Shown in pieces: positions 25,897 through 58,392 of a stretch of 64,000 nucleotides of DNA. A model generated the notes under the pieces. That model was not told the DNA's origin, searched no databases, and saw only the letters and a list, made by a program, of their open reading frames with translations. A program made the translations under genes and the position numbers. How positions within the stretch are numbered: position 1 is the stretch's first letter; every line of letters starts with the position of its first letter. Source of the DNA: Chiloscyllium plagiosum (lineage: Eukaryota). The DNA lies in NCBI RefSeq assembly GCF_004010195.1, contig NC_057756.1, positions 529,805-593,804 of the forward strand, written 5' to 3'.

Positions 25897-27252
25897 CCTG
25901 ACCAGGACAGAAGTTTCAGAATTTTGACAAAGAAGTTGTGCCAAATTTATAGACAGACGAACGTGCAGGCATTCTGTTCTCAGAGTAGGTCCTTCATTTC
26001 TGCTTCCAGCAAATTTTGCAAGTATTGAATGTTGAAAATGTTGGATCCAGCACCAAATTAATGCAATTGTTATTTTGTTTTTCAAATAACATGGAGCATC
26101 AATATATTCCATGACTTTTCTGACATGAGCCCTGGAGTTTAAATTTATTTCAAATTGACCTATGGAATGCAGCATCTGCTTCTGGATTAAGTTTCAAATA
26201 AGTTTTAGAGCTATGTTGCCCTGGCAGATCACAAACAGAGCATTATTCAATGCTTTAACACTGATAAACTGTTGAGATTGCATGCATCACCCAGTTTGTC
26301 ACTGAAACAGGCTAAAAGATTTACAATTTCCAACCAGAATGTTTTCACTCATGTACACGTAACAATGGGACTATTGTCTACCTTACTTGGGAGATATTTT
26401 TTTATTTTTAAAACTATATTTTGCATTAAATGACAAGTCTCGTGTAATTTTGAGCGCAAATCTTTGGCACTATGGATAGAATGCTGTGAGGGCCATGTCC
26501 TCTGGTACATTTTGAGTTTGAGTCATTTTGCTCTAATGTCTGGTAGGGTGTGCTAAAATTTCAGATGGTAGTTGAAGTACAATTGCGCAGTTGTAAATAT
26601 CAAGGAAAAACAGTCATAGGACAAAAGGATGTTCATTCTCTGAAGAACAATTCTATTTCTCAGAGATGATAATTTGCATGCAGAATGCACAATCCAAGAC
26701 AATGTTTTAAGCACATTCAGTCAAGGCAATTAAAACGAATGTCAATGGTCATTTTAAGAAGAAAAATGTGCATTGTAACAGGGGCTCATCGTGACATTAA
26801 TATTGAGCCACATGTTCATTTAAGAAGCCCACAAAGGAAACTGCCTGAATGGCTTCCTGAAAACCTGCAGTTCTGAAGTCCTCTCTCAGAAGCAATCATC
26901 ATTGATAACACAGTGAATTTGACCTGATCAAGTCTGATTTTGAAGGAAATGTCCACTTTCCAATTGCTATTCCTGTGATTCTAAAATTATGGTCCCTAGT
27001 TATTGTCTCAACTGTGAGAGGAAAAAGCTTTCCCAGTTCTTAGTCTATTAAAAACAAACATAGCGGTTAAAATTAGAAGACAACTCTCCTTGATCTTTCC
27101 TGGACTGAAGGGAAATATTACAACCTCCCCAATCACTGCAATGAAGTTTTCAAAGATTTGTCATGCTTGTAAACATTAACTTTTCCTTTTCCAAGTCATT
27201 CCAAAAAGATCGCATTCGACTTCACATTGTACCTTCTTTGTCGTCTTTACAG

Positions 27253-27279
27253 AAGAGCGATTGAAGCAATGTCAGACAG
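27253..27279 (+). CDS. Microexon 3, type A (27 nt, EERLKQCQT)
   Basis: gtctttacag|AAGAGCG...CAGACAG|gtaaag; paralog at 40868-40894 keeps both splice sites and the peptide pattern. Confidence 0.85.
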
Positions 27280-27344
27280 GTAAAGAGTTAATGGAAGGCA
27301 AACAGAAGTTTGATGAGGTGTGATTAGTTTTCAAATGATGGGTT

Positions 27345-27620
27345 GCACGATTGGTGCGTGACTAGGACTCTTGCCTAACACCACCAGGGAGATTCAAATC
27401 CAGGCTTGGGTGATTGTCTACGTAGAGTTTGAAAATTCTACCTGTGCCTGTGCGAGTTTCTGCTGGGTGCTCCCTTTTCTTCAAACTGTCAAATTATGTG
27501 CAGGTTGGGTGGATTGGCCATGATGAATCTGGAGGTAGGAGAGGGTCTGAATTTGAGGGGATGCTTTTCACAGAGACCCGGTGGATTGAACAGCCTCTAT
27601 CCGGACTGTAGGGATTTATA
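27345..27620 (+). mobile_element. Degenerate V-SINE
   Basis: gtagagtttgaaaattct...gtgcaggttgggtggattggccatg...ctgtagggatt. Confidence 0.65.
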
Positions 27621-27694
27621 AGTGCATATAAATGTAACACCATTCCATTTTAAATTTTGGCTTGAAACATTCCATCTTTGCTTAGCAATATGCT

Positions 27695-28090
27695 AGAGTC
27701 ATACAGTCATAGAGAAGTACAGCATGGAAGCAGACCCATCAATTCAACTTGTCCATGCCGACCAGACATCCTAACCTAATCTGGTCTGATTTGCCAGCAC
27801 TTGGCCCATATTCCTCTAAACCCTTGTTATTCATATACCCATCCAGTTGCCTTTTAAATGCTGCAATTATACCAGCTTTGTCTGGCAGCTCATTCCATAC
27901 ACGCACCACCCTCTGCATTAAAAAGTTGCCCCTTAAGTCCTTTTTATATCTTTCCCGTCTCACCCTAAACATATGCCCTCTAGTTCTAGACTCCCCCACC
28001 CCAGGGACAAGAATTCGTCTACTTATCCTATTCAGGCTGCTCATGATTTTATAAAACTCTATAAAGATTACCCCTCAGCCTCCGATGTTC
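27695..28090 (-). mobile_element. CR1-type 3' fragment
   Basis: SRTRGHMFRVRRERYKKDLRGNFLMQRVVRVWNELP; agagtcatacagtcatagag tail. Confidence 0.9.
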
Positions 28091-28484
28091 CTTTATTTTC
28101 GGTACCAATATCACTCAGGATATTCTTAATACTTGCCAACTTAAACTGTATGTGTTGGTGAGTGAATTTCATTAGGGAGTGTAAATCTTAGTCACAAGAA
28201 TGGAAACAGCTAAATTCGTATGTAATAAATCAGCATTGAAACACCTCAGTGCAATGTTTTCATCAGCTCCTGCTATGACTTTACCTACAGTGCCATGAAG
28301 AAGGCAATAATTTCGTAGGCTGAAAGATGTGTGAAACGTCTTTTCCCTGCTATGACCTTCCTGTACCCAACGAGAACATAGCTCAAATTGTTTTAGATTA
28401 AAATGAAACTAACATTGGAATTCAAAGTAGGCATTTTAAAAGAGATTCCATCAATAAGTTAAACTTGATTATTGGCACAATATT

Positions 28485-29125
28485 GAGGAAGGCTTTTGCC
28501 ACCCTGACATTCATTAGTCAGGGTATTGAGTGTAGAATTTATCTTGCTGTTGTACAGCACATTGCCTAGGTTGTACTTGGAATACCTTGTTCAGTTTTGG
28601 TCACCTTTTCAGAGGAAAGATGTTAAAAAGCCAAAAAAAGTGCAAAAGAAATTTGCAAAGATGTTGCCAGGATTCAAACGTCTGAGTTGTAGGGAGAATT
28701 TGGACCAGCTAAGGCATCTTTTTCTTTAGAACGTAGGAGGCTGTGAGGGGATCTCATGGAAATCCATCAGATCTTGAGAAGCATGGATGGGGTGAATGCA
28801 TTCAGTCTTTTTTTTCTCGGGTTGTGAAATTGAGGACTAGATAGCATCAGTTTAAGGTTAGAGGGAAAAGAATAAAAGGAAATGTTAAGGGCAATATTTT
28901 TTACACAGAGGGCAGTATGCACATGGAATGAGCTGCTAGCAGAAGGAGTAGACATGGGTACATTAACAAAATTCAAAAGATATTTGAACAAATACATGCA
29001 CGGGAAAGGTTTAGAATGATTTGAGCCAACTGCAGGGGTATGGGGTTAACGTAGATGGATGTTTTGCTCGGCATGGACCAGTTCGGGTAAAAAGGGCCTG
29101 TCTCAGTACTGTAGAACTCTATGAC
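28485..29125 (+). mobile_element. CR1-type 3' fragment
   Basis: LYSTLPRLYLEYLVQFWSPFQRKD; tail actgtagaactctatgac. Confidence 0.85.
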
Positions 29126-29547
29126 ACTATTTATTTTCATTCGTCTGATGATTAACTGAACTGAACGGAACTGAAACGGTATTGGCAGCTCATGTGAGAA
29201 GAATGATGGGATCAAAACCATGCTGAATATTTTGAATTATCTAGCGATACGCCAGATTTTGTTATCCACTTCACTTTTTCAATAAAATCTATTTAAATGT
29301 CATATGTGTTCGCCCCTCCTTTTGTCACATTTCTCGTAGAAATATTTGCACTTCCTTCTTTAAGCAGTTTCCTGGTTCGTGGATTGGGTCCTCATTTATG
29401 CTATGCACAACTGTCATTTGAGTTTAATGAGTTTAATTCAATTTCACTTGACGAAACACTGATGCAAAATACACTTTATATGAGTGTAAAAGTACACAAA
29501 AAGGAAAGTTAGACAATTCGTTTAGATGTTGCAATTTTCTCTTTCAG

Positions 29548-29574
29548 AGTCTAAAGAAGGTCCAACAACGCATG
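29548..29574 (+). CDS. Microexon 4, type B (27 nt, ESKEGPTTH)
   Basis: ttctctttcag|AGTCTAA...CGCATG|gtaaat; paralog at 51965-51991. Confidence 0.85.
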
Positions 29575-29606
29575 GTAAATTGTGGAGCTACTTCTTTCTG
29601 AACACT

Positions 29607-30900
29607 TAGAACATAAAACAGTACAGCACAGTACAGACCCTTTGGCCATAGAAGCTGTGCTGACATTTCATCCGACTCTAAGATCAAACTAACCTACATA
29701 ACCTTCATTTTACTGTCATCCGTGTGCCTATCCAAGAGTCGCTTAAATGTCCTTCATTTATCTGACTCGATTACCACTGATGGCATTGCATTCTGCGCAC
29801 TCACCACTCTCTGTGTAATGAACCTACCCTGATATTGCCTGTAAATCTTCCTCCAATCATCTTACAATTATGCCCCCTCATCGTAGCCATTTCGGTCCTG
29901 GGAAAAGAAGTCTCTGGTTATCCACTCTATCTGTGCCTCTCATCATTGTACACCTTTATCAAGTCACCTCTCCTTATTCTTCTCTCCAGTAGGGAAAGCC
30001 CGAGCTCCCTCAACCTTTCTTCATAAGACATGCTCTCCAATCCAGGCAGCATCTCCGTGAATCGCCTCTGCATCTTCTCTCAACAGTCCTATAATGAGGC
30101 GACTAGAACTGAACACAATATTCCAAGCGTGGTCTAATCAGGACTTTATAGAGCTATAACATAATCTCGTGGCTCTTAATCACAATTTCCCTGCCAATGA
30201 ATTCAACGCACCATGCGCCTTCTTGACAACCTTACCAACTTGAGTGGCAAATTTGAGGATCGACGGACATGGACCTCAAGATTCCCCTGCTCGCCCGCAC
30301 AGCCAAGACTTCTGTCTTTATCCCTGTAACCTGGTTAAAATTTGACCTTCCAAATGAATCAACTTACACTTTTCCATGTTGAACTCCACCTGCCACTTCT
30401 TAACCCAGTTGTGCATCCTGCCAATATCCCATGCAACCTACAACAGCCGTCCACACTATCCATAACTCCATCAACCTTCGTGTCATCGGCAAAGTTACTA
30501 ATCCATCTTTCCACTTCCTCATACAAGTCATTTATCGAAGTCGCAAACAGCAGAGGTCCCAGAGCTGATACCTGCGGAATGCCACTTCTCATTGAGCTCC
30601 AGGGTGAATATTTTCCATCAACTACAACCCTCGGTCTTCTCTGGGCCAGACAATTCTGTGTTCAGAAAAGCAAATTTACCTGTATCCCATACCTCCTTAC
30701 TTTTTGAATGAGCCGACCATAGAGAAATTTATCACAAGTCTTACTAAAACCCACATACGCCACAACAACTGCTCTACCTTCTTCAATGTGTTTTGTTGCG
30801 TCCTCAAAGAATTGAATAGGGTTTGTGAGGCATGACCTACCCCTCACAAAGCCATACTCACTATCTCTAATCAAGCTATTATTTTCAAATAATTATAAAT
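29607..30900 (-). mobile_element. CR1-type 3' part
   Basis: GFVRGRSCLTN; GIPQVSALGPLLF; NFADDTK; tagaacataaaacag tail. Confidence 0.9.
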
Positions 30901-30904
30901 AAGT

Positions 30905-32120
30905 ACGAACTTTGGGGAGATGACAAAAGTGATTGATGTGGACAGGGTGGTAGATGTAGTTTAGCAAAACATTAAACAATGTGCCTAATGGGAGGCAGAT
31001 ATTATAAGGTGAATTCACATGTCGTGAACTGGTCAGATGGATACAAAATTGGCTTTATCATAGAAGACAGATAGTAGCATTGTAAAGGTGCTTTTTTTCT
31101 GATTGGAGATCTATGACCCCAATGGTATTCCGTAGAGATCAGTGTTCGTCACCGTGTTGTTTGCATTTTAAATGTAAACGAGTTGGAGGAAAACGTAAAT
31201 GGCCAGATTTGTAAATTTGCTGACAGAGCAAAGATTAAGGGAGCTATCAATAGTGAGGAGGATTGTCAGAGGAAACAGCAGGGTAGATATAGGTGAGAGA
31301 CATAAGTGGAGGAATTACAGATGTTGTTTAATCCATACAAGTCTTAGGCGATGCATTTTCTAAGATTGAATGCAGGCAAGTTGTGTACAGCAAATGCAGA
31401 ACCCTTAGTAGCATAATCAAACGGAGGGATCTGGGCATACACGTCCAAAGTTACTCGAAAGTGGCAGTACAAGTGGATAAGGTGATAAAGAAGTCATGAA
31501 CTCTCCTTTCAATTTTCAATAGGGCATAGAGTATAAAAAAATGCTAAGTCGTATTTCAGCTGTGTAGACATTTAGACAATCCACATTTGGAATATTGTGT
31601 ACAATTCGAAGGGCTAGACTACCAGAAGAGTTTGGAGGCTTCGGTTAATGCACACAAACTGCTTACCAGGATGTTGTCTGGTTTAGAGATTAATAACTGT
31701 GAAGAAAGATTGGATAAATTGAGTTCGATTTCACTTGAATATCAAGGATGAGGTGACCTGATAGAAGCTTACTAAAGTTTGAGAGTTTTGTCTAGAATGG
31801 ATATTCAGAATATTTTCCGCTCGTCAGAAATGGGGAACATAGGTTTAAAGAAAAATGTGATAAGTTTAAAAGAGATGTGAAAGGCTAGTTTTTTACACAG
31901 ACTGTGGAAGGTTCGTGGAATGTGTTGCCAGAAGAGGTGGTGAAGGTACATACGGCAGCAATGTGTAAGAAACATCTTGACAGAGCTATGAATAGGCAGG
32001 AAATCAAAAGATATAGGCCACGAAGAAGCAAAAGGTTTCCAGATGAGAAATGCATCATGTGACATCGCAGTTTTGGTTAAGTAAAAGGGCCTTATGATAT
32101 GCTGTACTGTTTTTTGCTCT
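30905..32120 (+). mobile_element. Older CR1-type 3' part
   Basis: Degenerate RT (aaatttgctgac; ttggaatattgtgtacaattc) and tail. Confidence 0.8.
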
Positions 32121-33500
32121 TGAAAATGGTGACTGCTGAAATTTCGCTGTCCATATACTTCACCCCATCTTAGAAAGAAAGTGTGGCTCTATCAAATGCA
32201 GAAAACGGTTCCTGGATTGATATATATATATATTGCGAAATCAAATAACATTTCACACTGTGCAACGTGAGTTATATTTGGACTGCTAGCGAAACAATTG
32301 GCTACAATTTTTTAAAAAAAAGTATTACTTCACAAATTAGACATGAAAAGTATGACGTTCAGAGGGGCATTCAGTCCTTGAGGAAAGACCATCAATGATG
32401 GAATGACGTAAAGGCAAAATAATGCAGATGCTGGAAACCTGAAACACTCACAGAGAATTTAGATTAAAATCAATAGTACTGGCAACATCTGTGGAAAGAA
32501 AAACAAGTTAACGCTTCGAGTTTCGAAACGTGGCTGAGTCTGCTTCAGAAATGAAACATTGCATAATCATAGCAGCTAATAGAAGGGAGGGGAGGAAATT
32601 TGACTACCAGGCCAAACATTCTAAGCCATATGTTAGGTTAAAATTAGGGATGGTCATGTTTAATAAGAAAGACATGCTTCTCTCTCATTTTGAATTATGA
32701 ATCACAGATCTCTTGGAACTGCACGGTAGACAGATGTTTGATTGTCCTTGCAGTGCTGATGCTCTAAAGCTCAACGTTACTCTTCACCCCAGAGTTATAG
32801 ATGGGGTTTTATAATTTAATAACAGTTTTATAACAAGAAGGAATTTTCAGGTGAAGAAATGTTCGTAAGCCTTTTTCTGATGCTTACTTGTCACGAGCAT
32901 TTTTTTATGATTTATCAGCTCATGTATGAATGTTGGGCAGATCTGGCCAAGTAGGTATTTGAACTGCGGTAAATTAGGCATCACTGTTCTGACGAACCTC
33001 TGCAGTATTAACATGCAACAAGAAAACTGACTTCCAAAGACCAGAACTATTTTTCACGACCTGAAATATGATTGGAAACAGTGGGACTTCAACCCTCCAT
33101 TTCCCAAGTCTTATTCTGTCGCCATTAGTTTTGCTCGTAGTTCATTGTATCATAGTTGTTCGAATCATTCTCTTAATGAAGGGCAGTTATTATAAATTCA
33201 CTGCTGGGATTCTATATTATTTAATATGTTTGGGTGGCTGATCAGTTTCCCAGAAATATTGTTTTTTTTCCATTATACTCTGCAGACCTGAACTCTGTGT
33301 ATCTTGTTGGTAGTGGTTCGAATGCTATTCTGGTAATGTGCCCAACGGTCTCTGTATGGTTAATAATTTATTTGTGAATATTGTTCCCAGAATTGGAAGC
33401 AATATCATAAACTGTGCATTTCATAGTGAAATACCTTTCACAACTTCTGTGCAAGTCCTGTCATTCTGCAGTAAAACCTCTAAGTTAATTTATTTTACAG

Positions 33501-33527
33501 ATTTAAACAAAGATCTTACAGACATGG
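33501..33527 (+). CDS. Microexon 5, type C (27 nt, DLNKDLTDM)
   Basis: ttattttacag|ATTTAAA...GACATGG|gtaaac; paralog at 54043-54069 has an identical acceptor region (ctaagttaatttattttacag). Confidence 0.85.
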
Positions 33528-33979
33528 GTAAACAACTAGTTTCTTTTTAAATAAGTAGGACTAGTGCTTATTACGTGATCATCAATTAATCTAAACTTTG
33601 TTGCACTTTTCTCAGTGTGATCCCATTAGCGAGATGATATAAACATGGAATTCTTTCTTTCAAATAACAAGATTTCGGAAGGTTCAGAACTTGCAATATT
33701 GTCATATCGGTACACCAGCAATGGATAAACATTACCTTACTACTGTTCTCATTTAATGTCAAGAAGTGAAGCAACATCAGCAAAACTTGACTTTGAATGT
33801 CAGTGGTCTTGCTGTCAAGATTTGCCATGGGCGGCTCCGTGTCTGGAAGTTGAAGTTGATTAAACAAAATGTTTTGAACATATTTGACACAATAAATTAC
33901 GGTTAAAATGAGGAGAAAAAAGTCAAAGATTTAATGGGAAGTCCATTTCTCATTTAAAACGTTGTTGAAATGTTTATTA

Positions 33980-35030
33980 CTGGAGGCATGCATTTCAGTT
34001 GAGGGGCGGACTTCAAAGGAGACGTGAGGAGCATATCTTTTGCATAGAGAGTGGCAGGTATCGGAGTGGTGGTGGAGGCAGATATGATAGGTACATTTAA
34101 GGGAGTTTTCGATAAGCACATGCAAGGATTGGACGGATATGGACCAAGGGTAAAGGTAGATAAATAAGGTGAAGGTGGATAAATTCGCTGGACCAAATGA
34201 ACTACACTCCAGAGATCTGATGGTGACATCCGAAGGGATATTGGAGGCGTTCGTGGTGATTGTTCATGTATCACTGGAGTCAGGCAGGATCCCAGTGGAC
34301 TGTAAAATCGCTGATGTAACCCTCCTGTTGGAAATAGGGAGCAAGGCAGAAGACAGGAAATTACAGGCTGATTAACCTGACCTCAGTCTTTGGTAAGGTT
34401 TTCGAAACCATTGTGAAGGATGAGATCTCTGAATAAATATAAATGCATGGTAAAGTAGGGCAAAGACAACATGGTTTCATCAAGGGGTGGTCATGTCTGA
34501 CAAATCTGCTAGAATTCCTTGAGGAGGTGATGAGCAGTTTAAATCATGATGAGCCAATTGATGTTAGCTGCTTGGAATTCCCGAAGACATTTGACAAGGT
34601 GCTGCACAGAGGCTTCTGAGTAACATGAGAGCCGATGATGTTCGAGGCAATACACTAGCATAGTTAGAAGATAACAGACCTTGAGGATAAAAGGGTCCTT
34701 CTCAGAATGGCAGCTGGTGATTGGTGGTGCTCCACAATTGTCAGTGTCGTGACCACAAATTTTCATTTATACATTAATGATCTGGATGAAGGAACTGAGG
34801 GTATTCTGACTAATTCTGCAGATGATGCAAAGATAGGCGGAGGGATATAATATGATGAGGCAGGGAGGCTTCAGAAAGATTTGGAAAGGATAGGAGAATG
34901 GGCAAGAAGTTACAGTTGAAAAGTGTGGTGCTGGAAAAGCGCAGCAGGCCAGGCAGCAGAAGAGGTTGGTAAGACGATTGCAGGTCAAGAAGGCGGTGCT
35001 GAATCCAGGGGTTGGGGCTGAGATATGATG
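33980..35030 (+). mobile_element. CR1-type fragments with a Penelope-like piece at the end
   Basis: KVDKFAGPNELHSR; catggtttcatcaaggggtggtcatgtctgacaaatct; family motif gctggaaaagcgcagcagg near 34930. Confidence 0.8.
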
Positions 35031-36174
35031 TACATGTATTTTTAAACTGTTAAATAGAGAACCCATAAAATGTAATTGTTTACTCTTTTCCTCTTTAGCA
35101 TTACCTTTTTTTTTATATTAGTTAAGGTCCATGCATTCAATGTATTCCATGATGTTTTGGACATGATCTTTGGAGTTAACAGTTATGCCAACAGTCACTT
35201 GTCAATTCAACTGTGATCCTGACCAAAGCTTGCAATGATGAATACAGCTATGTGGTCCTGACAGAATCTAAACCGAAGATTATTCAGAAGATTACTGTTT
35301 ACAAATTGTCGAGATTATATACATCATTTCATTCCTCACTGAAACGGAACAACAGATTTACTGTTGCTGATTTGATTACTACATGTTTACATGAACGCTT
35401 AAAACTTAGATTATTGTGCACACTACTTAGGCGATATCTATTTTTTGCACAATATATTTTGCATTTAATGACAGCTCTCACGTAATCTTTAAAATAAGCC
35501 TTTGTCACTATTGACAGAATATTGTGAGGGTTACTACGATGGTATATTCACCAGTTGTAACCATTATGTCATAAGACATGTGGATTATTCATATTGCTGT
35601 TGTAGTGTGCTAAATTTTCCAAGAGTGGCTGAAGTAAACTTCCACTGTTGTCAATATGGAGGAAGAAGTAGATAGAAAAAGGAAAGTTTTCATTCACTGA
35701 AGGTCTTTCCTATTTGTCAGAGAAGATAGTTCGTATGCAAAGTGCAGTATTGAGAGTGCTGTCAAAACGCATTCAGTTGAGGCAATTAAATCGACATTAA
35801 GTGGCCATCTGTAGCAGAAAGAATGCGCAAAGTGCAAATCCTGTGACTGTGTGGGTCTGAGGTACCGAGCAGCGATCATCATTATTAAAGTCGTACATTT
35901 GAACTAAAATAGCTTGTTAGTGAAGGAAATTTCACTTTTTGATTGTTATGGCTGTGATTCAAAAATGCTGATTTCTTGTTGTTTTCTCAGCTGTGAGAGG
36001 AAGCAACGTCCCTGTTTTTCGTCCATCAAAAGCAAACTTTGCAGCTAAAATTAGAAGGCAGCTCTCCTGGATTTTCCAGTGCTGATGAGATCTACTCCAG
36101 CTTCTCTAATCAAGGCAATAAAACGCATCAAAGACATTATTTGTTTGTAACATTAACTTGCTCCCCTCAGCAAG

Positions 36175-40803: not shown

Positions 40804-40867
40804 AATGCCATATTTCTGGGAAGGAGGCATCCAATTTCTCATTGTCCCATTAATGTTTTCTTCACAG

Positions 40868-40894
40868 AAGAACAATTGAAGCAATGCCAGAAAG
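40868..40894 (+). CDS. Microexon 6, type A' (27 nt, EEQLKQCQK)
   Basis: ttttcttcacag|AAGAACA...CAGAAAG|gtaaag; paralog of 27253-27279. Confidence 0.85.
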
Positions 40895-42809: not shown

Positions 42810-45800
42810 CCAGAGGGTCCACTTCGGAGCAGGGAGAGCCGGGAGGAGGTGACGTTGTGCGAGGTGATTGTCGGGAAGGCCGGTAAGTATATTTAAACTT
42901 CTTACCGACAAGCCAGCGAGGGAGGAGCGAGCAAAGGACTTTTGGGAAGGATAAGTAGAACAGGTTATATTTGTGTGGTTACAAATTCAGGAAGATGGAT
43001 GGAAGCTTAGAGCTAGGACCAGCAGAGTTGTTTTCTCTGGTTTGCTGCCTGTTCCACGTGCTAGTGATGTGAGGAATAGGGAGAGAAAGGAGTTGAACAC
43101 GTTGCTGCAGGGATGGTGCAGGAGGGAGGGTTTCGCGTTTTTGGATAATTGGAGCTCTTTCTGGGGTAGGTGTGACCTCTGCAAGCAGGGTGATGTTCAT
43201 CTAAACCAGAGGTGTACCAATATCCTGGGTGGGAAATTCGCTAAAGCTATTAAGGTGGGTTTAAACTAATACAGCAAGGGGATGGGAACCAAAATTGTAG
43301 GACAGGTACAGAAGAGGATGAGAGTAGGGAGTTCCCAAATGAAGTATTTGACACTGGCAAGCGAGAACCTGGTTTGAAGTGTGTGTACTTCAATGCGAGG
43401 AGCATCTAAAATAAAGTGGGTGAACTGGCAGCATGAGTTGGTACCTGGGACTTCGATGATGTGGCCATTACAGAGATATGGATAGAGCAGGGACAGGAAT
43501 GGCTGTTGCAGGTTCCGGGATTCAGATGTGTCAGTAAGAACAGAGAAGATGGTAAAAGAGGTGGAGGTGTGGCATTGTTGATCAGGGACAATATTACAGT
43601 TGTAGAAAGGATGTTTGGGGAGCCGTTAACTGAGGTAGTATGGGCTGAGGTTAGAAACAGGAAATGAGATGGCACCATGCTGGGAATTTTCTATAGGCTT
43701 CTGAATAGTCCCAGAGATGTAGAGGTAAAGATAGCAAAGATGATTCTCGATAGGAGTGAGACAGGCAGGGTAGTTGTCATGGGGGACATCAACTATCCAA
43801 ATATTGACTCGGATCACTACAGTACGAGTACTATAGATGGGTCAGTTTTTGGCCAGTGTGTGCAGGAGGGCTTCCTGACACCGTATGTTGCCAGGCCTAC
43901 AAGGGGCGAAGCCACTTTAGATTTAGTACTGGGTAACGAGCCTGGCCAGGTGTTAGATTTGGAAGGAAGTGAGCACTTTGGAGACAGCGATCACACTTCT
44001 GTCAGGTTTACTTTAGTGATGGAAAGGGATAGGTGTACACCACCGAGCAAGAGTTATAGGTTGGGAAAGGGAAATTACAATGCAATTAGGAAAGATTTAG
44101 GAAGTGTAGAATGAGGAAGGAAACTGCAGGGATGAGCACATTAAAAATGTGGAGCTTATTCAAGGAAAAGCTCTTGTGTGTCCTAGATAAGTATTTACCT
44201 GTTAGGCAGGGAGGAAGATATAGAATGCATGAGCCATGGTTTACTTAGGAAGTGGAATCCCTGGTCAAGAAAAAGAAGAAGGCTTATGTTAGGACAAAAC
44301 GTGAAAACTCAGTTAGGGCGCTTGAGGGTTACAAGGAAGTCAGGAAAGACCTAAAAAGAGAGCTCAGAAGAGTCAGGAGGAGGCATGAGAAGTTGTTGGC
44401 GGATAGGATCAGGGTTAACCCTAAGGCTTTCCATAGGTATGTGTTTTAAAAAAATTCACAAGGTCAAGGACCAGGCTCGCAGGAAAACATGTATTGGGAC
44501 ACAATTTTAACCCTTTCACCACATTCCACTGCTTGGCCCAATGCATGTGTTGCATAATGATTCACACATGTATTGGGACATAATTTTACACCACAGTATG
44601 TCAGGAATAAAAGAATAACGAGAGTTAAATTAGGGCCAATCAAGGATAATAGTGGGATGCTGTGTGTGGAGTCAGAGGAGATGGAAAAGCACTAACTATT
44701 TTTCGACAATGTTCACTATAGAAAATGAAAATGTTGGCGAGGAAGATACAAAGATACTTTCATCTACACTAGAAGAGATTGATGTTCAAAGGAAGAGGTA
44801 TTAGAAATACTGCAGAGTGTGAAAATAGACAAGTCCCCTTGGCCGGATGGGATCTATCCTAGGATCCTCTGGGAAGCAAGGGAAAAGATTGCCGAGCCTT
44901 TGGCATTGATCTTCAAATCATCATTGTCTACAGGAATAGTGCCTGAGGACTGGAGGATAGCAAATGCGGTTCCCTTGTTCAAAAAGGTTTGGTAGAGACA
45001 ACCCTAGTAATTACAGACCAGTGAGTCTCACTTCAGTTGTTGGTAAAGTGTTGGAAAAGGTTATAAAAGATACGATTTATAACCATCTAGAAAAGAATAA
45101 TCTGATCAGGGACAGTCAGCACGGTTTTGTGAAGGGTAGGTCGTGCCGAACGAATCTTATTGAGTTTTTTGACAAAGTGACCAAACAGGTAGATGAGAGT
45201 AAACCGGTTGATGTGGTGTATATGGATTTCAGCAAGGTGTTTGATAAGATTCGCCACAGTAGGCTATTATACAAAATGCGGAGGAATGGGATTGTGGGAG
45301 ACATAGCAGTTTGGATCAGTAATTTGCTTACTAAAAGAAAACAGAGGGTTGTAGTTGATGGAACATGTTCATCTTGGTGTCCATTTACTAGCGGCATACC
45401 GCAAGGGTCGGTGTTGGGTCCACTGCTGTTCGTCACTTTTATAAATGACCTGGATGAGGGCTTAGAAGGGTGGGTTAGTAAATTTGCGGATGACACTAAG
45501 ATCAGTGGAGTTGTGGATAGTGACGAAGGATGTAGTAGGTTGCAGAGAGACATAGATAAAATGCTGTGCTGGGCTGAGAGGTGGCAAATGGAGTTTAATG
45601 TGGACAAGTGTGAGGTGATACACTTTGGCCGGAGTAATCGGAATGCAAAGTACTGGGCTAATGGTAGGATTCCTGGGAGTGCAGATGAGCAGAGAGATAG
45701 TGGTGTCCATGTACACAGATCCCTGAAAGTTGCCACCCAGATTGACAGGGCTGTTAAGAACGCATACAGTGTTTTGGCCTTTATTAATAGAGGGATTGAG

Positions 45801-46357
45801 TTCCGGAACCAGGAGGTTATTCTGTAGCTGTACAAAGCTCTGGTATGGTCACACTTGGAGTATTGTGTACAGTTCTGGTCACCGCATTATAAGAAGGATG
45901 TGGAAGCTTTGGAAAGGGTGCAGAGGAGATTTACTAGGATGTTGCCTGGTATGGAAGGAATGTCTTACGAGGAAAGGCTGAGGGCCTTGAAGGTTGAGAC
46001 GTGACTTAATAGAGACATACAAGATAATCAGAGGGTTACATAGGGTGGAGAGGGAGAGCCTTTCTCCAAGTATGGAAATGGCAAACATGAGGGGTCACAA
46101 CTTTAAAGTGAGGGGAGATAAGTATAAGACAGTCGTCAGAGGTAGTTTCTTTACTCTGAGAGTAGTAAGGGTATGGAATGCTTTGCCTGCATCGGTAGTA
46201 GATTCGCCAAGTTTAAGTGCATTTAAGTCGTCATTGGACAGGCATATGGACGTACATGGAATAGTGTAGGTGGGATGGGCTTCAGATTAGTATGACAGGG
46301 TGGCGCAACATCGAGGGCCGAAGGGCCTGTACTGAGCTATAATGTTCTATGTTCTAT
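42810..46357 (+). mobile_element. CR1-type LINE (ORF1 C-terminus, APE, RT) nested in the Penelope element
   Basis: VVFSGLLPVPR and HLNQRCTNIL (ORF1); GGGVALLI; MGDINYPNID; RT ORF 44964-45827 with FADDTK; tail tgttctatgttctatg. Confidence 0.95.
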
Positions 46358-46919
46358 GCCATAGAGGTGGAGGAATTGAGAGCAAGGGATCATGTTTTTA
46401 CTGGGAGGGGGCACTGGTGGGAGGAGGTGTAGTCAAGGTATCTGTGGGAATTGGTGGATTTGAAATAGATGTCCTTGTTGAGTTGATTAGCAGAGATGGA
46501 AACGGACAGGTCCAAAAATGAGAAGGAGGTATTGGAGATGGTCCATGTGAACTTGAGGTCGGGGAGGAGGTGTTTGTGAAGTTAACGAACAGTTCAATCT
46601 CCTTGTGGGAGCACGAGGTGGCGCTGATACAGTCATCAATGTAGCAGAGGAAAAGGCTGGGGAATGGTACTATTGTGACTGCAGAATATGGACTGTTCCA
46701 CATATGCTACAAAGTGGAAGGCATAGCTGTGCCCTATGTGGATGCCCATGGCTGTCCCTCTGGTCTGTAGCATTTGGGAGAATTCGAAGAAGAAGTTGTT
46801 GAGGGTGAGGACCAGTTCTGCCAATCGAAAAAATGTGTCAGTGGAGGAGGAAAGAAGGTCGGCAGGAAAGGAACAGAGGGCTTGTCGGCCATCGCCATGG
46901 GGGATGGACGTCATAGTAT

Positions 46920-49300
46920 CTTTTTTACAAATTCTTTTTGTTATACATTTGTGGGACTTGGGCATCGCTGGCTGGCCAGCATTGATAAACCATCCCTATT
47001 TGCTCTTCCAAAGGTATTGGTTAGCCGCCTTTTTAATCACTGTAGTCCACCTTCTGTGGGTTGACCCACAATGCCAGTCGGGAGTGAGTTTCAAGAGTTT
47101 GACCCAATGGCTGTGAAGGAACAATGGTATATTTCCAAGTCAGGATGGTGAGTGGATTGGAGGTGAACTTGTGTGTGGTGGCATTTCTCAGTATATGCTG
47201 CCCTTGCCCTTCTCAGTGGAAGTGTTCATGGGTTTGGAAAATGCTGTCTAAAGATCTCTGGTGAATTTTTGCAGTACATATTGTAAATAGTACACACAGC
47301 TGCTACTAAACGCCAGTGGTGGAGGGATTGAACGTTAAAAGATGTGGTGCCAATCAAGCGGGTTGCTGGATGTTGTCAAGCTTCTTGACTGTTGTTGGAG
47401 TTGCACCCCTCCAGACAAGTGGGGATTATGCCATCGCACTCCTGACTTCTGCCTTGTAGATGATGGACAGACTTTGGGGTGTCAGGAGTTGAGACTAGTC
47501 TCAATTAGTCTCTGATCTGCTCTTGAGTTTCTGGTCAATAGTAACGCCAAGGATGTTGACAGTGCGGGATTCAGTGATGGTAATATCGTTGAATGTCAAA
47601 GGGTGGTAGTTAGAGTGTCTCTTATTTGTGATGGTCAATGTCTGGCATTTGTGGGTGCGAATGTTACTTGCCACTTGCTGAACCAAGCCTGGACAATTTC
47701 CAGATCATGCTGCAATATCTGAGGATTCGCGAATCATGCTGGACACTGTGTAATCATTGGCGAACATCCAAATTCTCACCTAATGACAGAGGCACATCAT
47801 TGATGACGCAGCTGAAGATTCTTGGGCCGAGGATACTACCATGGGGGACTCCTGCAGTGATAGCCTGGAGCTGAGATAACTGACCCTTCAAAACCACGAC
47901 CATCTTCCTTTGTGCCAAGTATGACTCTAACCAGTGGAGTGTTTGCCCCTTGATACCAATTGATTCCAGTTTGTCCAGGGCTCTTTGATTTTATACTTGG
48001 TCAAATGCGGCATTGATGTCAAGGGCTGTCACTCTCATCTCATGTCTGGAATTCAGTTCTTTTGTCCATGTTTGAACCAAGGTTGTAATATGATCAGGAA
48101 CTGAGTGACTCTGGCTGAACCTAAACTGGTTGTTGCTGAGCAGGTGCTGCTTGATAACGCTATTGTTGACTCCTTCCATCACTTTACTGGTGATTGAGAG
48201 TAGATTGTTTGAGTAGTAGTTGGCTGTGTTGGCTTTTTCCTGCTTTTTGTGCACAAAACATACCTGGGCAATTTTCTACATTGTTGGGTAAATGCCAGTG
48301 TTGTAACTGTGCTGGGAGAGCTTGGTTGGGGGAGTGTAAAGTTGTAGAACAAATGTCTTCAATATTGTTTCCGGAAAGTTATCAGGGCCCATTGCATTTG
48401 TAGTATCCAGTGCCTCCAACCACTTCTTGACACCATGTGGAGTGAATTGAATTGGTTGGAGATTAGTATCTGTGATGCAGGGGATCACTTGAGGAGCCCG
48501 AGATGCATCATGAACTCAACCCTTCTGACTGAAGATTTTTTGCGAATGCTTCAGCCTTACCTTTTGCACTGATGTGTTGAGCTCCTCCATCATTGAGGAT
48601 GGGGATATTTGTGGATTCCCGTCCTCCAGTGAGTTGTTTGATTGACCATCACCATTCGTGACTGGATGTAAAAGGACAGCAGAACTTAGATCTGATCCGT
48701 TGGTTGTGGGATAACTTAGCTCTGTCTATCACTTGCCCTTTTATGCAGTTTGGCATGCAAGTTTGGTAGCTTCACCAGGTGATACCTCATTTTGAGGTAT
48801 GCTTGATGCCACACCTGGCATGGCCTCCTGCACTCTCCATTGATCTAGGGTTGAACCTCTGGCTTGATGGTAATGGCTGAGTGGGGGATATGCCTGGTCA
48901 TGAAGTTGCAGATTGTGCTGGAGTACAGTTCTGCTGATATTGATGACCCACAACGCCTCATAAATGCCCAGTCTTGAGCTGCTAGATCGGTTCAAAGTCT
49001 GTCCCATTTAGCACGGTGACAGTGCCACAAAACATGATGGTTGATATTCTCAGTGTGAAGGCGGGACTTTGTCTCCACAAGGAGAGTGTGGTGGTCACTT
49101 TTACCTATACTGTCATGGACAGATGCTGCTGTAGCTGGCAGATGAATAAGGATGAGGTCAAATATGTTTTTTTCGTCTTATTGTTTCCTTTACCACCTGC
49201 TGCAGAACCAGTCTAGCAGTTATATCCTTTAGGATCCGACCAGCTCGATCAGTAATGCTTGGTGATGGACATTGAAATCCCCCACCCCAAGTATATTTTG
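46920..49300 (-). mobile_element. CR1/L2-clade LINE nested in the Penelope element
   Basis: ALDINAAFDQV; LLSITSKVMEG; AMGPDN; NILGVTIDQKL. Confidence 0.85.
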
Positions 49301-49309
49301 CGCCCTTGC

Positions 49310-49612
49310 CACAATACAGTGCGGAAACAGGCCATTTGACTCAACAAGTCTGCACTGACCCTCAGAAGAATAATCCACCCAGACCCATTACTCTACCAAA
49401 ATACTCTATATCTCCCCTGACTAATGTACCAAACATACACATCCCTGAATGCTTTGGGCAATTTAGCACGGCCACTTCACCTAACATGCCCGGAGGAAAC
49501 CCGTGCAGACGCGGTGAGAATGCAAAAATTCGCCACAGAGTCGCCGGAGGCTGGAGTCAATAACAGGTCCCTGGTGCTGTGAAGGAGCAGTGCTAACCAC
49601 TAAGCCGCCGTG
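49310..49612 (-). mobile_element. V-SINE (HE1-like), internally deleted
   Basis: gcagtgctaaccact head; cccggaggaaacccg; gcggaaacaggcc tail. Confidence 0.8.
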
Positions 49613-49902
49613 TTGACATGTATAGGGACTGGATATCCATAGTGAAGATAAGGTGTCAAGTGCCAGGGAATCAAAAACACGGAGAAATTGGAGTGTATGG
49701 TTGATTTCCCTTATGTATGTGGGCTATTCCTGAACCAAGGGTGATAGAACGGAGTCGAATTATAAGGAATTGAGTTCTATGGGGCAGTAGCAGGTGGAGA
49801 CGATAGGTTGACTGGGGCAGTCAGGTTTGTGGGTTCAGGGTAAGATGTAGAACCGGGTGTTGTGGAGTTGGGGAGTTATGAGGTTGGAGGCTGGGAATGG
49901 GA

Positions 49903-50018
49903 GAACGTGAAGACTGCAGATGCTGGAGCTCAGAGTCGAGAATGTATGCCCGAAACGTTAATTCTCCTGTTCCTTGGATGCTGCCTGACCTGCTGTGCTT
50001 TTCCAGCAATACTCTCTC
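49903..50018. mobile_element. Collapsed palindromic Penelope-like mini-element
   Basis: Left start ctgcagatgctggag joined directly to the right arm atgcccgaaacg...cttttccagcaa. Confidence 0.7.
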
Positions 50019-51964
50019 GGCTGTAGATAGGTGAGCTCCTGAAGATTGATGAGGTTGTAGATGGCTTGGGAGATGATGGTTTGGTGATGATAGGGGTTTC
50101 ATGGTCGAAGGGGTGATCGGAGGAGGTGTCGGCAAGGTGGCGTCCGACTTTGGTAAGATAAAGGTCAGTGTGCCATATTACTACTGCAACCCCCTTATCA
50201 GCTGGTTTGATGGTGAGTTGGATTTGGAGCAGGAGTTGGAGGGCTGCATCTTGCAAGGTTGAGAGTTGGAGTGAGTGAGAGGTTGGAGTGAGTGACTGGT
50301 TGAGATAGTCAATGTCGTGATGAGAGGCCAGCATGGTTGTCCATGGGGTTGGATTATGTTGGAGGTACGAAAAGGAGCTTTAAGAGGGTAGGTGGGAGTT
50401 GCCATTGAAACAGTAAGCATGGAGGCAGAGGCCATAGAAGAAAAGTCTGCAACACATGTGGGGGTGTTTTGGAATGAAGATGAGACCTTTACTGAGGTTT
50501 GATCATCCTTCCTTGGTGAGGGGGAGGTCTGTGGGACAGGTAAGAATCTGGCAGGTTGAGGACTGGGGCCTGATGTGGAGGTGGAGTTGTGTTTGGAGGT
50601 GGAGAATGCCCTTGACTGGGGGCAGTGATTTGATCTTTGGTGACGTCTGAGTGGCATAATTGACAGTGGACATGTGGGCGGAAGTGGTGCTGTCAGTGGC
50701 AACAGTGGGAGTGGTTGTGAGGTTCTTGGTGGCATTTGTGGACATGGTGCCCTCAGCGGCAACTGCAGAGGTGGCTACAGCAGTGTTTCGTTGAGTGACA
50801 TCAGTGTTGCTATTCACATAGGCAGAAGTATACTGTTCTTCATCAATCATGGGTGTGGAAGTGATGTTCTCGGTAGTGTTTGTGGGAGCAGTGCAATTGG
50901 CGGTGTGTATGTAGGAGGCATGGTCGTCGGCAGTGTTCCAGTGAATAATGTCTATAGGGGTGGAATTAGCATTGGCAGCAGCAACCATGGGGGCGGCGTT
51001 CGCGGAAGTAGTCATTCCGACAGTATTTGCGAAGGTGGAAGTTCCAGTGCATTCACCTCTCCCTCGAGCTCAACATTGCAATTTGACATGACCCTCTTGA
51101 CCAGTCCTCCCTGTCCATCTTCATTCTTGCCTATCTGGTCCACCTCACCCCGCCCCCACCAACTTATCACAATTACCCCTCCACTTTCACCTATTGCCTT
51201 CCCAACATACCTCGCCACCACCAGTCTCTCCCCCATATCTTTATTCATGTCTGAGTCCGTTCCTCCTCCACATTCCTGATGAGGGGCTTGTGCCTAAACC
51301 GTTGACTCTCCTACTATTCAGATGCTTTGGATCCTTTTGACTCTGACTCCCCAGCATCTGCAGCACTCACTTTCTCTTCACAAATACTGCCAGACCTGCT
51401 GAAAATTTCCAGCTACTTCTGTTGTTGTTTCTGAGAATAAAGCTCATATCATTTTCGATTAAAATGAATAATATTTCCAGTTGGATCTATGCAATGTAAA
51501 ATAGACTCTACGAATAATAAACTGAACCAGTGCCTGCCAAATTCTATCATTGCCACAGCGTTTTTCTTTTCATTTGTTGAACTCATATGGTACTGCCAGC
51601 CAGTATTAGAAGAACAGTAAAATGAAAAAAAAACTGAAATAATGTTGTATTATTTTGTGAACCTTCAGGTTTTAATATCCTCTTTTTGTAGCACTTTATA
51701 TCCAATTAAATCCTTTTAGTCTAATGTCTGCTACTCATTTTGTGACATTTTCTTGAAAGAAATATTCGCATTTCTCTCTTCCTGCCTGATGGACCCCATC
51801 CTCACTTAACATGTGCATGCCAACCATCTGTATTGTGCAACTAGAATGAAAAATTTCTCAACTTTACATATCCAAACACCGATGTGCAATGCAATTTTAT
51901 TGAATGGAAATATTCTAAAAGAAGCAAGTTAACAATAAGTCTAAATCTTTAAATTCTCTTACAG

Positions 51965-51991
51965 AATCTAAAGGAGATCCAGAAATTCATG
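51965..51991 (+). CDS. Microexon 7, type B' (27 nt, ESKGDPEIH)
   Basis: ttctcttacag|AATCTAA...ATTCATG|gtaagt: consensus donor; paralog of 29548-29574. Confidence 0.85.
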
Positions 51992-54042
51992 GTAAGTTGC
52001 TGAGCTATGTATTTACAACTAACATTGAGAACTACATTTGTTTTTCTCAGTCTGTGGATTGTGACATTGATCCTGGAAGTCGAATCATGCTTGCAAAAGA
52101 CTGGTGGACATATCTGATATTCATGACTGTATCAAAGAACAACTTTCCATTATTATTTTCTGAGAAAATTCATGGAGTTTTCACCTTTTTTTGAAAAAGC
52201 CATTTTTCCTCATCAACCTGTTTGGAGGTGCTACTCACCTTTGGAGCAGCTGGGACTTGAAACCGGTCTCAAGTCTTGGGTTGGGGATGTGACCACTGCA
52301 TCACAAAGAGGCCTTTTATTTCATTGGGATACTTAAATGACTCAGGATATAGATGGAATTAGGGGAAGAAGCATGTAATAATGTAACGTCAGTTGGCCCT
52401 GTGTGTGAAATATGCTAAGTGTGCAAATGTGCCTTTCTTTGCCTTTCAATCATGTGCTGCTATGTCAGTCGGTAATGCAGCCATGACAAGAGGCATCACC
52501 AAACTGCTGGAAAATAACAGTGACGATAATCAGAAGAGACTCGATATTACCTTAACCAAGCAAAATAGAGAATGCTGAAATTACTTCCGGAGTGCAAGGA
52601 ACAATCCATCAACTTCATGTCACAGCAGGAAGTGTGTTTCACGGTGTTGAATGAGTAAATAGTTGCTATGTTAATCAATCTCGAGGAATTGAATCGTGAC
52701 AACACAATTATCTGCAAATGGAATTTGCTACTTATGGTGCTTAACAGATTAGACGTTACTTTCATGTCAGGTGCAAGGGCAAACTCAATCCTTGAAGAAT
52801 GACCATCAATGATAAAATGATAGTGCAGATACTGGAAATCTGCAACACATACAGAGAGTGTTCAAGAAAATTGGTACCTGGGGCAGCATCGATGGAGAGA
52901 AAAATCAAGTTCTGAGTTTCGAGACTGGGACAACTCTTCTTTAAAACCGAAACATTTCATAGATGTAGCAAAAAATAAAAAAGAATGGGAAGAGACAACC
53001 GATAGATTTGACCACAAGGAAGAACATTTTAAACCATTTGCCTGCTCAAAATGGAAACATTCTAGATTATCGAGTGGGAGACAACTGCGCTTTTCTCCAT
53101 TTTAGCATGAATCACAAATGTGTTCATAGTTGCTGAGTACTTTGGCATGGAAGATAGATTTTCGATTGATTATTGGGCTGGTCTAAGTTACATGAATTGA
53201 CCTTCATTGATGTTTGAAACACTTTGCAGAAATTTTATGTCCATTTCCTTTATTCCTGTGCTGTCATCTGTCCTTGTTTGAATTGCACTCATATGGTCGG
53301 TGCAGTTAAGTCACACTTTACTGCTAATGCCAGGGCATTTGTGATGAGGATTTCTTTCGAAAATAAGGGTGTTTCTGGTGATGAAATATTCTTCGACTAT
53401 ATGTTGCGGAGACAATTTATGTCTGAGAATTACATATCATAATCGTGACTTGCGAATTACTTGCTCATATATGAATGTCCAGCAGATCTTGCCACATAGG
53501 GATTTGAACTGATGTAAAACCTCACATAGCCAACCGAGTCCTGATGAACCTCTGCAGCAATATCATAGGATAAAATTGTTGATCTGAAAGGGACAACATA
53601 TTTTTTCCCTAAATTGAATTATCACTGGAAACAACAAGATTTTGTTCTTCCATTTCCTAAATCTCATTCTTATTGCCGCTAGATTTGTTAGAGTTTTATG
53701 ATTTCAAAATTATTTGAATTCCTCGTGTACGCATAGAGCAGACACTGTCAATTCGCTTATTGAATTCCATAATTTTTAACATGCTTGAATCACAGCTCAG
53801 GAGACCAGAAATATTGCCATTGTTTGGAGGCTTAGATTGCATGTATGTTGCTGGTATCAGTTCTGAAAAGTGTTGTGGAAATGCCTCAACAATCTCTGCA
53901 CGGTTAATAATTTCTTTCTAAATATTGAATCCAGAACTAGGACTAATGTCATAAGTTGGGTATTTCGTGTTGAATGAACTTTCACAATTCTTGTATAACT
54001 CTCATCATTCTGTAACACATTCTAAGTTAATTTATTTTACAG

Positions 54043-54069
54043 ATCTTAACGAACTTCTTAAAGATACAG
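54043..54069 (+). CDS. Microexon 8, type C' (27 nt, DLNELLKDT)
   Basis: ttattttacag|ATCTTAA...GATACAG|gtaaaa; paralog of 33501-33527. Confidence 0.85.
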
Positions 54070-55229
54070 GTAAAAAAAATGAAAAACTGCCATTGATTAT
54101 TATATTAACATTAATTTACATAGACTTTCTTGCATTCTTGTGAGTTTGGGCGTGTTAAGGAGCTGGCATAATTCAGTATTTCATATTCACCCTGTTGAAT
54201 TTGAAGGATTATCGTTTAAAACTGGAATTATTTACTGATTGGCGTACCAGCAATGGACAAACATCACTTTATGATTTTAATTTTTACAAAGCCCAGGATC
54301 ATTTGATTTGAATTGTCAGTCATGTTGCTATCAATATACCGACGTTAATGAAAATTATATTTGCCACAATAAATTACAGGTAAAATAAGAAGAAAAAAAG
54401 AGTCAATTTATGATGGATAAAACAATTCTCGTATATTATCCTAGTTACTAACATGACAAGGCAATTGCATTCCTTGGTTAGAATTCCAGCTCAGTCTTCG
54501 TTAGTGATACTTATCTCTCAACATCTTCCCCATGTGTTACATGGCCCCAGCTTTCAACAAACCATGAATATTTATATTGCATTTCTAAGTCTGCTGTCAA
54601 TGGTCTGCATTGAGTAGTTTCTCCAGGATCATCTTCCTCTGTTGCAGATGTGAAACACCATGAATTTGTTGCCGTTTCTGAACCGCGTGATGTAATCATA
54701 TTTTATGGTAGGCCGTTGGATCCAGCTCTTATTTTCTCCCATTTTGAATTTAACCACCACATCATTTAATGCAAACTTGGTCACATGTGGCAACATGTGT
54801 GCCACATCTAAGTAAAGATAGGTCCAGTTCCTGACATTGTACTGGCTGGAGTTATATTGTCCCAATGTAGTTTAGGTGCTACGGGCAGGTGGTGGTCTAT
54901 TTGTAATCTTCGCTAATCCAGAAGTCCGGAATATGTTTTTTGAATATTTTTTCCAATCTTGTAATGATATATATTAAAAGATGAATTTAATAAAATCACT
55001 GGTGAAGGTATCCGACTGTCGGGAACCATTAAAAATGCTGAATTAATCCGATTAAGAGAACAAATTCAGCCATTCTTATGAGACTTATCTTCCATTTGAC
55101 ATAAGATTACCAGTCATTTGGATTACTCTTTATTTTTTTCTGTGAAATTGGTGATCACCGGTTAATTCTGACATAGCCTAGAACTCTTAAATCACACGAA
55201 CTAATTAAAACCTGGACACCATCAGGCAT

Positions 55230-58365: not shown

Positions 58366-58392
58366 CCAAAGCATTGATAAAAAAGAATGACG
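58366..58392 (+). CDS. Microexon 9 (27 nt, AKALIKKND)
   Basis: cttatgtattcag|CCAAAGC...AATGACG|gtaaag: same length, phase and donor hexamer as the type A exons; continues the heptad pattern. Confidence 0.65.

Follow-up and report, generated by a model that had tools for sequence, protein, structure and literature searches.

An old head-to-tail duplication of three 27-nt exons with their introns in a putative micro-exon gene, apparently retained mainly for exon architecture

Internal duplication of several exons at once is a known, textbook process, and the locus described here is another example of it. In the nebulin super-repeats, internal tandem duplication has copied multi-exon units with four exons for every seven domains (Bjorklund et al. 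2006, PMC1553488). For chicken BG, Salomonsen et al. (2014, PMC4046983) describe many tiny exons, varying in number from 13 to 36, that together encode what is presumed to be a coiled-coil rod, and for the butyrophilins they describe heptads followed by B30.2. The present locus is like nebulin in that several exons recur together as a tandem block, with exon borders falling inside the structural repeat and not at its edges, and it is like BG and the butyrophilins in that a rod would be assembled from many tiny exons. A literature search for elasmobranch micro-exon coiled-coil or B30.2 genes found none in a collection made up mostly of papers outside subscription.

Self-BLAST of the window, which is the whole 64,000-nt stretch of DNA that was analysed, shows that the segment from 26.0 to 34.0 kb matches the segment from 35.0 to 54.5 kb in the same order and on the same strand. 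Specifically, plus-strand diagonals were observed at 26099-26772/35137-35829 (65% identity), 26888-27182/35868-36159 (71%), 27212-27339/40827-40958 (74%), 28372-28465/51433-51523 (72%, a weak match with E 0.002), 29438-29590/51858-52007 (70%), 32371-32565/52785-52961 (69%), 32918-33535/53463-54077 (66%) and 33880-33921/54357-54398 (88%). All seven homologous blocks scored beyond every shuffle (z 7.6-44, 40-100 shuffles each), and an eighth block to the left of 26015 scored at chance level in the same test (z 0.3). Introns and exons are both homologous, on one strand and colinear. The first-pass annotation had proposed a tandem duplication of a three-microexon cassette together with its introns, citing colinear intron anchors; the colinear diagonals and the seven blocks above shuffles bear this out, and the five anchor motifs that were looked up all lie within ~11 nt of the positions it gave (26105/35143, 26417/35455, 27012/35991, 32387/52801 and 28338/41388). 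The 7-mer of the last anchor has 11 occurrences in the window, yet the block surrounding it reaches z 7.6. The head-to-tail duplication of three 27-nt exons and their introns is real. An assembly artefact is ruled out because the copies are 30-35% different, and a common transposon family is ruled out as the source of the diagonals because order is kept over 8 kb and the blocks cross exons.

Copy 1 of the cassette occupies 26015..33996 (7,982 nt, plus strand) and copy 2 occupies 35029..54473 (19,445 nt, plus strand), as delimited by local alignments and the shuffle test. The difference in size, 8.0 versus 19.4 kb, arises because transposons inserted later into copy 2. On the left, homology ends at ~26015, with 25898-26014 unmatched and a 500-N gap (25398-25897) immediately upstream. 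The junction between the copies (33997..35028, no strand assigned), recognised by self-hits and high repeat depth, is composed of multicopy repeat fragments, including a short repeat at ~34914-34958 and fragments termed LINE-like from their matches to an RT-bearing LINE region, and the exact breakpoint within it is unreadable. A repeat-mediated unequal crossover was considered as the origin and set aside, as no matching repeat was seen at both flanks, the left one being interrupted by the N gap. Alignments place an LTR retrotransposon-like insertion in copy 2 only (36178..40822, plus strand), the LTR-LTR divergence of which equals the divergence of the duplication. This 4.6-kb insertion stops ~45-65 nt ahead of the acceptor of exon A', and A' is intact despite it. 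A LINE at 42780..46360 (plus strand, ends approximate) was identified by Pfam Exo_endo_phos and RVT_1 matches and by self-hits, and further self-hits mark additional repeat fragments at ~46.4-51.4 kb. The intron distance between the copies suggests an age of roughly 170-380 million years for the duplication; the molecular clock of sharks is slow (PMC13100897).

The exons carried by the cassette are all 27 nt long, of phase 1-1 and on the plus strand. Exon A (27253..27279) would encode the latter half of an amphipathic helix, including a Cys in a core position, exon B (29548..29574) a Gly/Pro hinge with the lowest helix propensity, and exon C (33501..33527) a first helix half. Their counterparts are A' (40868..40894), which is the same as A at 23/27 nt, B' (51965..51991), the same as B at 20/27, and C' (54043..54069), the same as C at 18/27. 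As the first-pass annotation had reported, all six keep 27 nt, flanking AG..GT and an open, stop-free frame despite the diverged introns. The acceptors of the three exon pairs are pyrimidine-rich, the donors read G|GTAA, and the 20 nt preceding C are identical to the 20 nt preceding C'. The duplicated unit is frame-neutral, consisting of three 27-nt exons in one open frame with equal intron phase at both ends. Four unduplicated micro-exons, also on the plus strand, lie outside it: X1 (17134..17169, 36 nt, phase 1-1) and X2 (22047..22082, 36 nt, the presumed ancestral partner of A) upstream, and D (58366..58392, 27 nt) and F (62064..62099, 36 nt) downstream. Introns of 2-11 kb separate the exons. 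When the ten exons from X1 to F were joined in a script, only one of the three frames stayed open. Three further proposals were rejected: a 16-nt candidate at 61955-61970 disrupts the frame as a constitutive exon, a decayed X1 copy near 19.5 kb aligns convincingly only over 17353-17540/19777-19966, and A, B, C and D match one another at just 4-13 of 27 nt, too few for older paralogues.

Could these segments be chance AG..GT stretches that happened to survive in both copies of a neutrally duplicated intron or intergenic region? We regard this as very improbable. The AG, the length and the GT are kept in 3/3 exons versus 13/311 intronic pseudo-exons of 18-45 nt (Fisher 1.1e-4) and 0/12 of exactly 27 nt, and where candidates were chosen by signals in one copy, non-exons kept them in 3/43 and 1/44 cases (Fisher 0.0013 and 0.00025); the pseudo-exon sets overlap, hence are not independent, and the splice-signal thresholds were fixed after the exons had been seen. 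Between the copies, 32% of 31-nt intron windows (1188/3714) are free of indels, and a cassette under neutral drift would be stop-free 40% of the time. A chance origin does fit the few intronic candidates that persist in both copies (the 3/43 above), as well as the closeness of exon and intron identity that is described below. Against it, the three 27-nt survivors share their acceptor and donor features and one open phase, four further such exons lie outside the duplication, and a heptad pattern runs across the C-A' junction. The 27-nt excess is moreover limited to one strand, with splice candidates of this length numbering 7/39 on the plus strand and 0/40 on the minus strand under a filter that passed over both C and C' and whose hits include a candidate located within the LTR element and an internal donor of X1. 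This strand excess counts separately because it is independent of the duplication, and the earlier claim that the duplication is the strongest evidence for the reality of the exons is arguable, the excess being about as strong.

Conservation of the encoded residues presents a different picture. The exons are identical between copies at 61/81 nt (75%), which differs from the introns with P 0.18 if intron identity is taken as 70% and with P 0.03-0.07 at 65-67%; the 70% value is inflated, as shuffled sequence already reaches 62-67% with that aligner and the intron value falls to 65-67% once gap costs are made stricter. Splice-flank identity (49/66) is not significant (P 0.07-0.27). The cassettes share 16/26 residues (P 0.02-0.11 versus intron divergence, depending on gap penalty), with 14 nonsynonymous and 6 synonymous changes giving a dN/dS of about 0.44 over 26 codons. 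Judged against the introns duplicated with them, the putative exons of both copies are shown to be under purifying selection on their length, reading frame and AG/GT, whereas any selection on amino-acid sequence appears weak. The proposal that selection retained both copies holds for length, frame and splice sites, in which the exons are better preserved than intron windows, but constraint on residues is marginal and exon identity only marginally exceeds that of introns.

Heptad and helix patterns bear on how the unit is arranged. The C+A' junction has the best phase among the ~8-9 junctions scored (heptad P=0.0012, rank 1/7 spacings), and X2+A, which shows the same heptad pattern as C+A', is also continuous (P=0.0072, rank 2/7). 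Continuity was likewise observed for C'+D+F (P=0.012), and was not observed for C'+D (P=0.45, rank 4/7) or X1+X2 (P=0.92). Heptad continuity is therefore not general, being interrupted by hinge exons. Helix cost is 0.91 in B and 0.88 in B' versus 0.31-0.45 in the other eight exons. By these patterns the DNA unit is a permuted one, with A the predicted end of a helix, B a Gly/Pro hinge and C the predicted start of the next helix. Where a 27-aa helix+hinge unit from an old duplication had been envisaged, the old tandem duplication stands, but the unit is half-helix, hinge and half-helix, and by the heptad test a complete helix arises only across the new C-A' junction.

We consider it likely that an old intragenic tandem duplication, with its six exons spliced in a row, lengthened a segmented helical rod under selection that acts mainly on architecture. 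The host would be a large gene, probably of a shark, built from 27- and 36-nt exons. With both breakpoints within introns, a block of ~8 kb would have been copied with three symmetric phase-1 micro-exons aboard, changing the exon order from X2-A-B-C-D to X2-A-B-C-A'-B'-C'-D. Consecutive splicing of all six exons would add 27 residues to a rod of ~18-residue amphipathic helices with Gly/Pro hinges between them. Such a duplication would be tolerated because 81 nt preserves the frame, because C ends in the heptad phase of X2 so that C+A' rebuilds the X2+A helix, and because the hinge that was copied too makes up for the one residue by which 27 falls short of 28; an unbroken coiled coil would be thrown out of register by a 27-residue insertion. 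Selection would then act mainly on spacer length and on the pattern of helix and hinge, with little weight on the exact residues.

The two cassettes might instead be alternative modules, with transcripts taking one, both or any subset and rod length varying by splicing. We think this unlikely, although every exon is a symmetric multiple of 3 in a frame-neutral phase-1 cassette, weak amino-acid constraint fits optional exons, and chicken BG tail exons are alternatively spliced, with read-through (PMC4046983). The best heptad phase falls on the C-A' junction, which only the duplication made, and this suggests that the junction is used in protein.

Evidence from RNA was sought by comparing 25900-41100, a stretch that ends before B' and C', with reads from two single-cell RNA runs and with two contig sets, one of DNA and one of RNA-guess type. 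Of 81 joints 15 were listed, and in these no read or contig links any pair of A, B, C and A' by splicing; the comparison has low power, as it took in ~2% of one single-cell run and 6% of the other and as exons of 27 nt anchor poorly. RNA matches in this stretch were repeat-derived only (X5, 693/693 reads partial; X6, 0 reads), the RNA-guess run X7 had zero depth in two bins around exon C, and no RNA set was listed as matching 25900-35100. Among proteins of <=2000 aa, none shared three words with a 40-residue read-through frame around X1, and none of 38 candidates aligned to the A/A' read-through frame at E <=10, both being weak tests in which 9-12 residues are exonic. In a Pfam scan of 10 frames, the three read-through frames that bear exons matched 0 families, and the single Rfam match in the window is unrelated. 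The RNA and protein-search results are congruent with a gene that worked during most of the period after the duplication and is now silent or recently dead, its exons undecayed because sharks evolve slowly (PMC13100897). As all 10/10 frame-symmetric exons of the window are still intact, such a recent loss seems to us improbable, more so than alternative splicing of the modules.

More tentatively, the host could be a giant, so far undescribed gene of micro-exons in cartilaginous fishes, a possibility to which we give rather less than even weight. Its protein would be a rod with joints between short amphipathic helices capped by Cys, lengthened across hundreds of millions of years through duplication of permuted half-helix/hinge/half-helix cassettes under selection on spacer length and splice architecture and not on sequence. 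Such a rod may act as a molecular ruler, its length set in evolution, and perhaps by splicing too, in 9- and 27-residue steps.

The duplication provides a built-in neutral control for judging exon retention. It reveals, with neither RNA nor another genome to draw on, that easily overlooked 27-nt segments have been under selection over a very long period. It also captures what may be a specific step in the growth of a micro-exon array, the addition of a permuted cassette that its hinge releases from the heptad register, although the greater interest lies in the host gene rather than in the duplication process. Unlike the nebulin super-repeats, this locus shows a single event, in which three 27-nt exons were doubled for a predicted gain of just 27 residues; at about 30-35% divergence the introns are still recognisably homologous and the breakpoints can be placed approximately. 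No Ig V or transmembrane exon was recognised among 123 window ORFs, some of them Pfam-scanned, and no B30.2 exon lies in the window; both ends of the gene would lie beyond it. Finally, each BG exon has 21 or 24 nt and encodes one heptad (PMC4046983), whereas the exons of this locus are 27 and 36 nt and include predicted Gly/Pro hinges and core cysteines that set it apart from BG.

We compared the window with itself by BLAST, and the segments at 26.1-33.9 kb and 35.1-54.4 kb were found to be joined by eight colinear plus-strand diagonals of 65-88% identity. This bears out the first-pass annotation, which had claimed a tandem duplication of three micro-exons (A-B-C to A'-B'-C') together with their introns and had named such a self-comparison as the check; the five quoted intron motifs that were checked each lie within ~11 nt of their annotated position. 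Specifically, the homologous blocks score above their shuffles in 7 of 7 cases (z 7.6-44; 40-100 shuffles per block, none as high), and the block left of 26015 scores at chance level. Local alignment places copy 1 at ~26015-33996 (7,982 nt) and copy 2 at ~35029-54473 (19,445 nt), both on the + strand. DNA contigs of sequencing run X1 (a label unrelated to the exon X1), a run possibly not independent of the assembly, match unique parts of both copies, exons B and C included, with 0-10 differing letters per 570-900 nt. It is near certain that this tandem duplication of a block with three 27-nt exons plus introns is real and old. The process behind it is of an already known kind; the breakpoints and the mechanism, unequal crossover or other, are unreadable because repeat fragments occupy the junction between the copies and a 500-N gap lies immediately left of copy 1.

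The six exons are A (27253-27279), B (29548-29574) and C (33501-33527) in copy 1, and A' (40868-40894), B' (51965-51991) and C' (54043-54069) in copy 2. All lie on the + strand and, as annotated at first pass, are intact (6/6), each with 27 nt, AG/GT sites and an open frame; the borders are AG and GTAA and the phase is 1-1 throughout. Four unduplicated micro-exons flank them, X1 and X2 (36 nt each) upstream and D (27 nt) and F (36 nt) downstream, and joining the ten exons from X1 to F in a script gives a single open frame of 98 residues, the remaining two frames being closed. Among splice-signal candidates on the + strand 27 nt is the most frequent length (7/39; Poisson P 1.4e-5, or 7e-4 corrected for 52 lengths), an excess that holds independently of the duplication, and none of 40 on the - strand has this length; note that the filter was chosen after the exons had been seen, missed C and C', and took in two probable non-exons. 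The same kind of search found no convincing micro-exon in 1-17133, which is mostly transposon sequence.

Several further observations concern these exons. For exon A another donor is conceivable, which would extend the exon to 65 nt (27253-27317), with a read-through open for 13 codons and of helical-looking composition. All ten exons lie within stop-free read-through frames of 25-91 codons, which may recall the intron read-through of chicken BG genes. A 16-nt AG..GT candidate with fair splice signals (61955-61970) precedes exon F by 93 nt. Including it moves the reading frame into a stop, and it is possibly a poison exon, or noise.

The first-pass annotation also held that selection had retained both copies, with exons and splice sites better preserved than introns. 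For exon architecture this stands. In the aligned introns 1188 of 3714 31-nt windows are indel-free, AG is kept in 90/223 cases and GT in 73/217, and intronic AG..GT look-alikes of 18-45 nt (pseudo-exons) keep both ends and length in 13/311 cases (0/12 at 27 nt), versus 3/3 for the real exons (Fisher 1.1e-4). When candidates were chosen by the signals of one copy only, non-exons were kept in 3/43 and 1/44 cases (P 0.0013 and 0.00025, both optimistic since the candidates overlap). The stop-free condition contributes a factor of just 0.40. The exon sequence itself is only weakly held: the copies are identical at 61/81 nt and 16/26 residues, and 14 of the changes are nonsynonymous and 6 synonymous (dN/dS 0.44, from few sites). 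Tested against intron divergence, all exon sites give P 0.18 if intron identity is taken as 70% and P 0.03 if it is taken as 65%; the nonsynonymous sites give 0.11 and 0.02, respectively. Splice flanks beyond AG/GT match at 49/66 positions (P 0.07-0.27), and the 20 nt upstream of C and C' are identical.

Gly/Pro hinges are encoded by B and B', whose helix cost is 0.91 and 0.88 vs 0.31-0.45 in the other eight exons, and A and C are each predicted to encode half of an amphipathic helix. A heptad pattern is found in X2+A (P=0.0072) and in C'+D+F (P=0.012), and is absent in C'+D alone (P=0.45) and in X1+X2 (P=0.92). The top heptad score belongs to C+A', the junction made by the duplication (P=0.0012, or ~0.01 when corrected for 8 tests; first among 7 spacings), whose core-residue pattern is that of X2+A, ending in Cys. 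With half helices in A and C, the hinge in B and the best register across C+A', the DNA unit is thus circularly permuted with respect to the structural unit. The 27-aa helix-plus-hinge unit of the first-pass annotation needs refinement: the duplicated DNA would encode half-helix, hinge and half-helix, with a full helix arising only across C+A'. Three features may have made the step tolerable: it leaves the frame unchanged, C could replace X2 ahead of A', as the heptad pattern suggests, and the copied hinge would take up the 27-versus-28 register slip. The outcome would be an additional segment of a predicted jointed rod in which length and pattern outweigh residues. Judged from sequence, there is a good probability that selection preserved the two copies and that their exons are spliced consecutively, lengthening the rod by one segment.

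Copy 2 has since been enlarged by transposons. An LTR element at 36178-40822, whose internal part matches the window's second LTR element, contains a stop-riddled frame that we take to be integrase-like; Pfam did not confirm this identity for the frame scanned from the second element. Under three gap settings the two LTRs of this element are 72.5, 67 and 64% identical, the same level as the two copies of the cassette (70, 67 and 65%), and it therefore inserted soon after the duplication. It lies only tens of bases ahead of the A' acceptor, and exon A' survived. Copy 2 also holds a LINE with Pfam matches to endonuclease and reverse transcriptase. The intron distance between the copies is 0.38-0.47 substitutions per site. 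Calibrated with the dS of 0.061-0.111 that separates whale shark and zebra shark after ~50 million years (PMC13100897), this would put the duplication at ~170-380 million years, a rough age that applies coding rates to introns and presupposes that the organism is a shark, a point taken from the first-pass annotation and the repeat types. The rate taken from PMC10587355 is per generation only and was left out of the dating.

Other repeats were observed in the window. The LTR of the copy-2 element, otherwise ~30% diverged, carries a perfect 63-bp inverted repeat by self-BLAST (36456-36518 / 36906-36968), which points to recent template switching or inversion, or else to an error of assembly. The second LTR element (10762-16423, opposite strand) has LTRs 78-80% alike and an internal part 65-71% like that of the copy-2 element. 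A 188-codon Thr/Ala-rich open frame in the A'-B' intron (50503-51069, - strand) adjoins repeat sequence and probably belongs to a transposon. In the X2-A intron, a full-length U1 snRNA-like copy at 23507-23658 (+), probably a retrocopy, narrowly passes the Rfam cut-off (74.2 versus 69.5 bits). Short pairs near exon X1 (17353-17540 / 19777-19966 and 2476-2697 / 16587-16806; ~72-75% identity), which carry no exon copy, are either repeats of old date or what is left of a further duplication nearby. There are also a 98% palindrome from two facing short repeats (17598-17782), an 85% palindrome (18141-18293), a two-copy tandem (6415-6777; 181 bp, 98%) and an inverted pair (56141-56352 / 57296-57505; 212 bp, 89%).

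When RNA reads were mapped to 25900-41100, a stretch with B' and C' outside it, none of the 15 joints listed out of 81 was an exon-exon joint; the reads sampled amount to ~2% and 6% of two single-cell runs, of which one yielded zero reads. Protein searches with the short exon-bearing frames, a weak test given the query length, gave no match. Targeted searches of a literature collection lacking most subscription papers returned nothing on shark genes of this type. We tentatively suggest, as a possibility short of even odds, that the host is an undescribed shark gene for a jointed molecular ruler enlarged by permuted cassettes.

The duplication provides its own neutral control for hidden micro-exons, and it lets one step in the growth of a micro-exon array be read. 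It resembles nebulin, where, according to PMC1553488, multi-exon blocks are tandemly repeated with borders inside the structural repeat, as is the block here. The rod design, predicted here from exons alone, is like that of chicken BG genes, which according to PMC4046983 build rods from many tiny exons (13-36 of 21 or 24 nt). However, the exons here are of 27 and 36 nt and include hinge exons, and thus depart from the BG exon signature.
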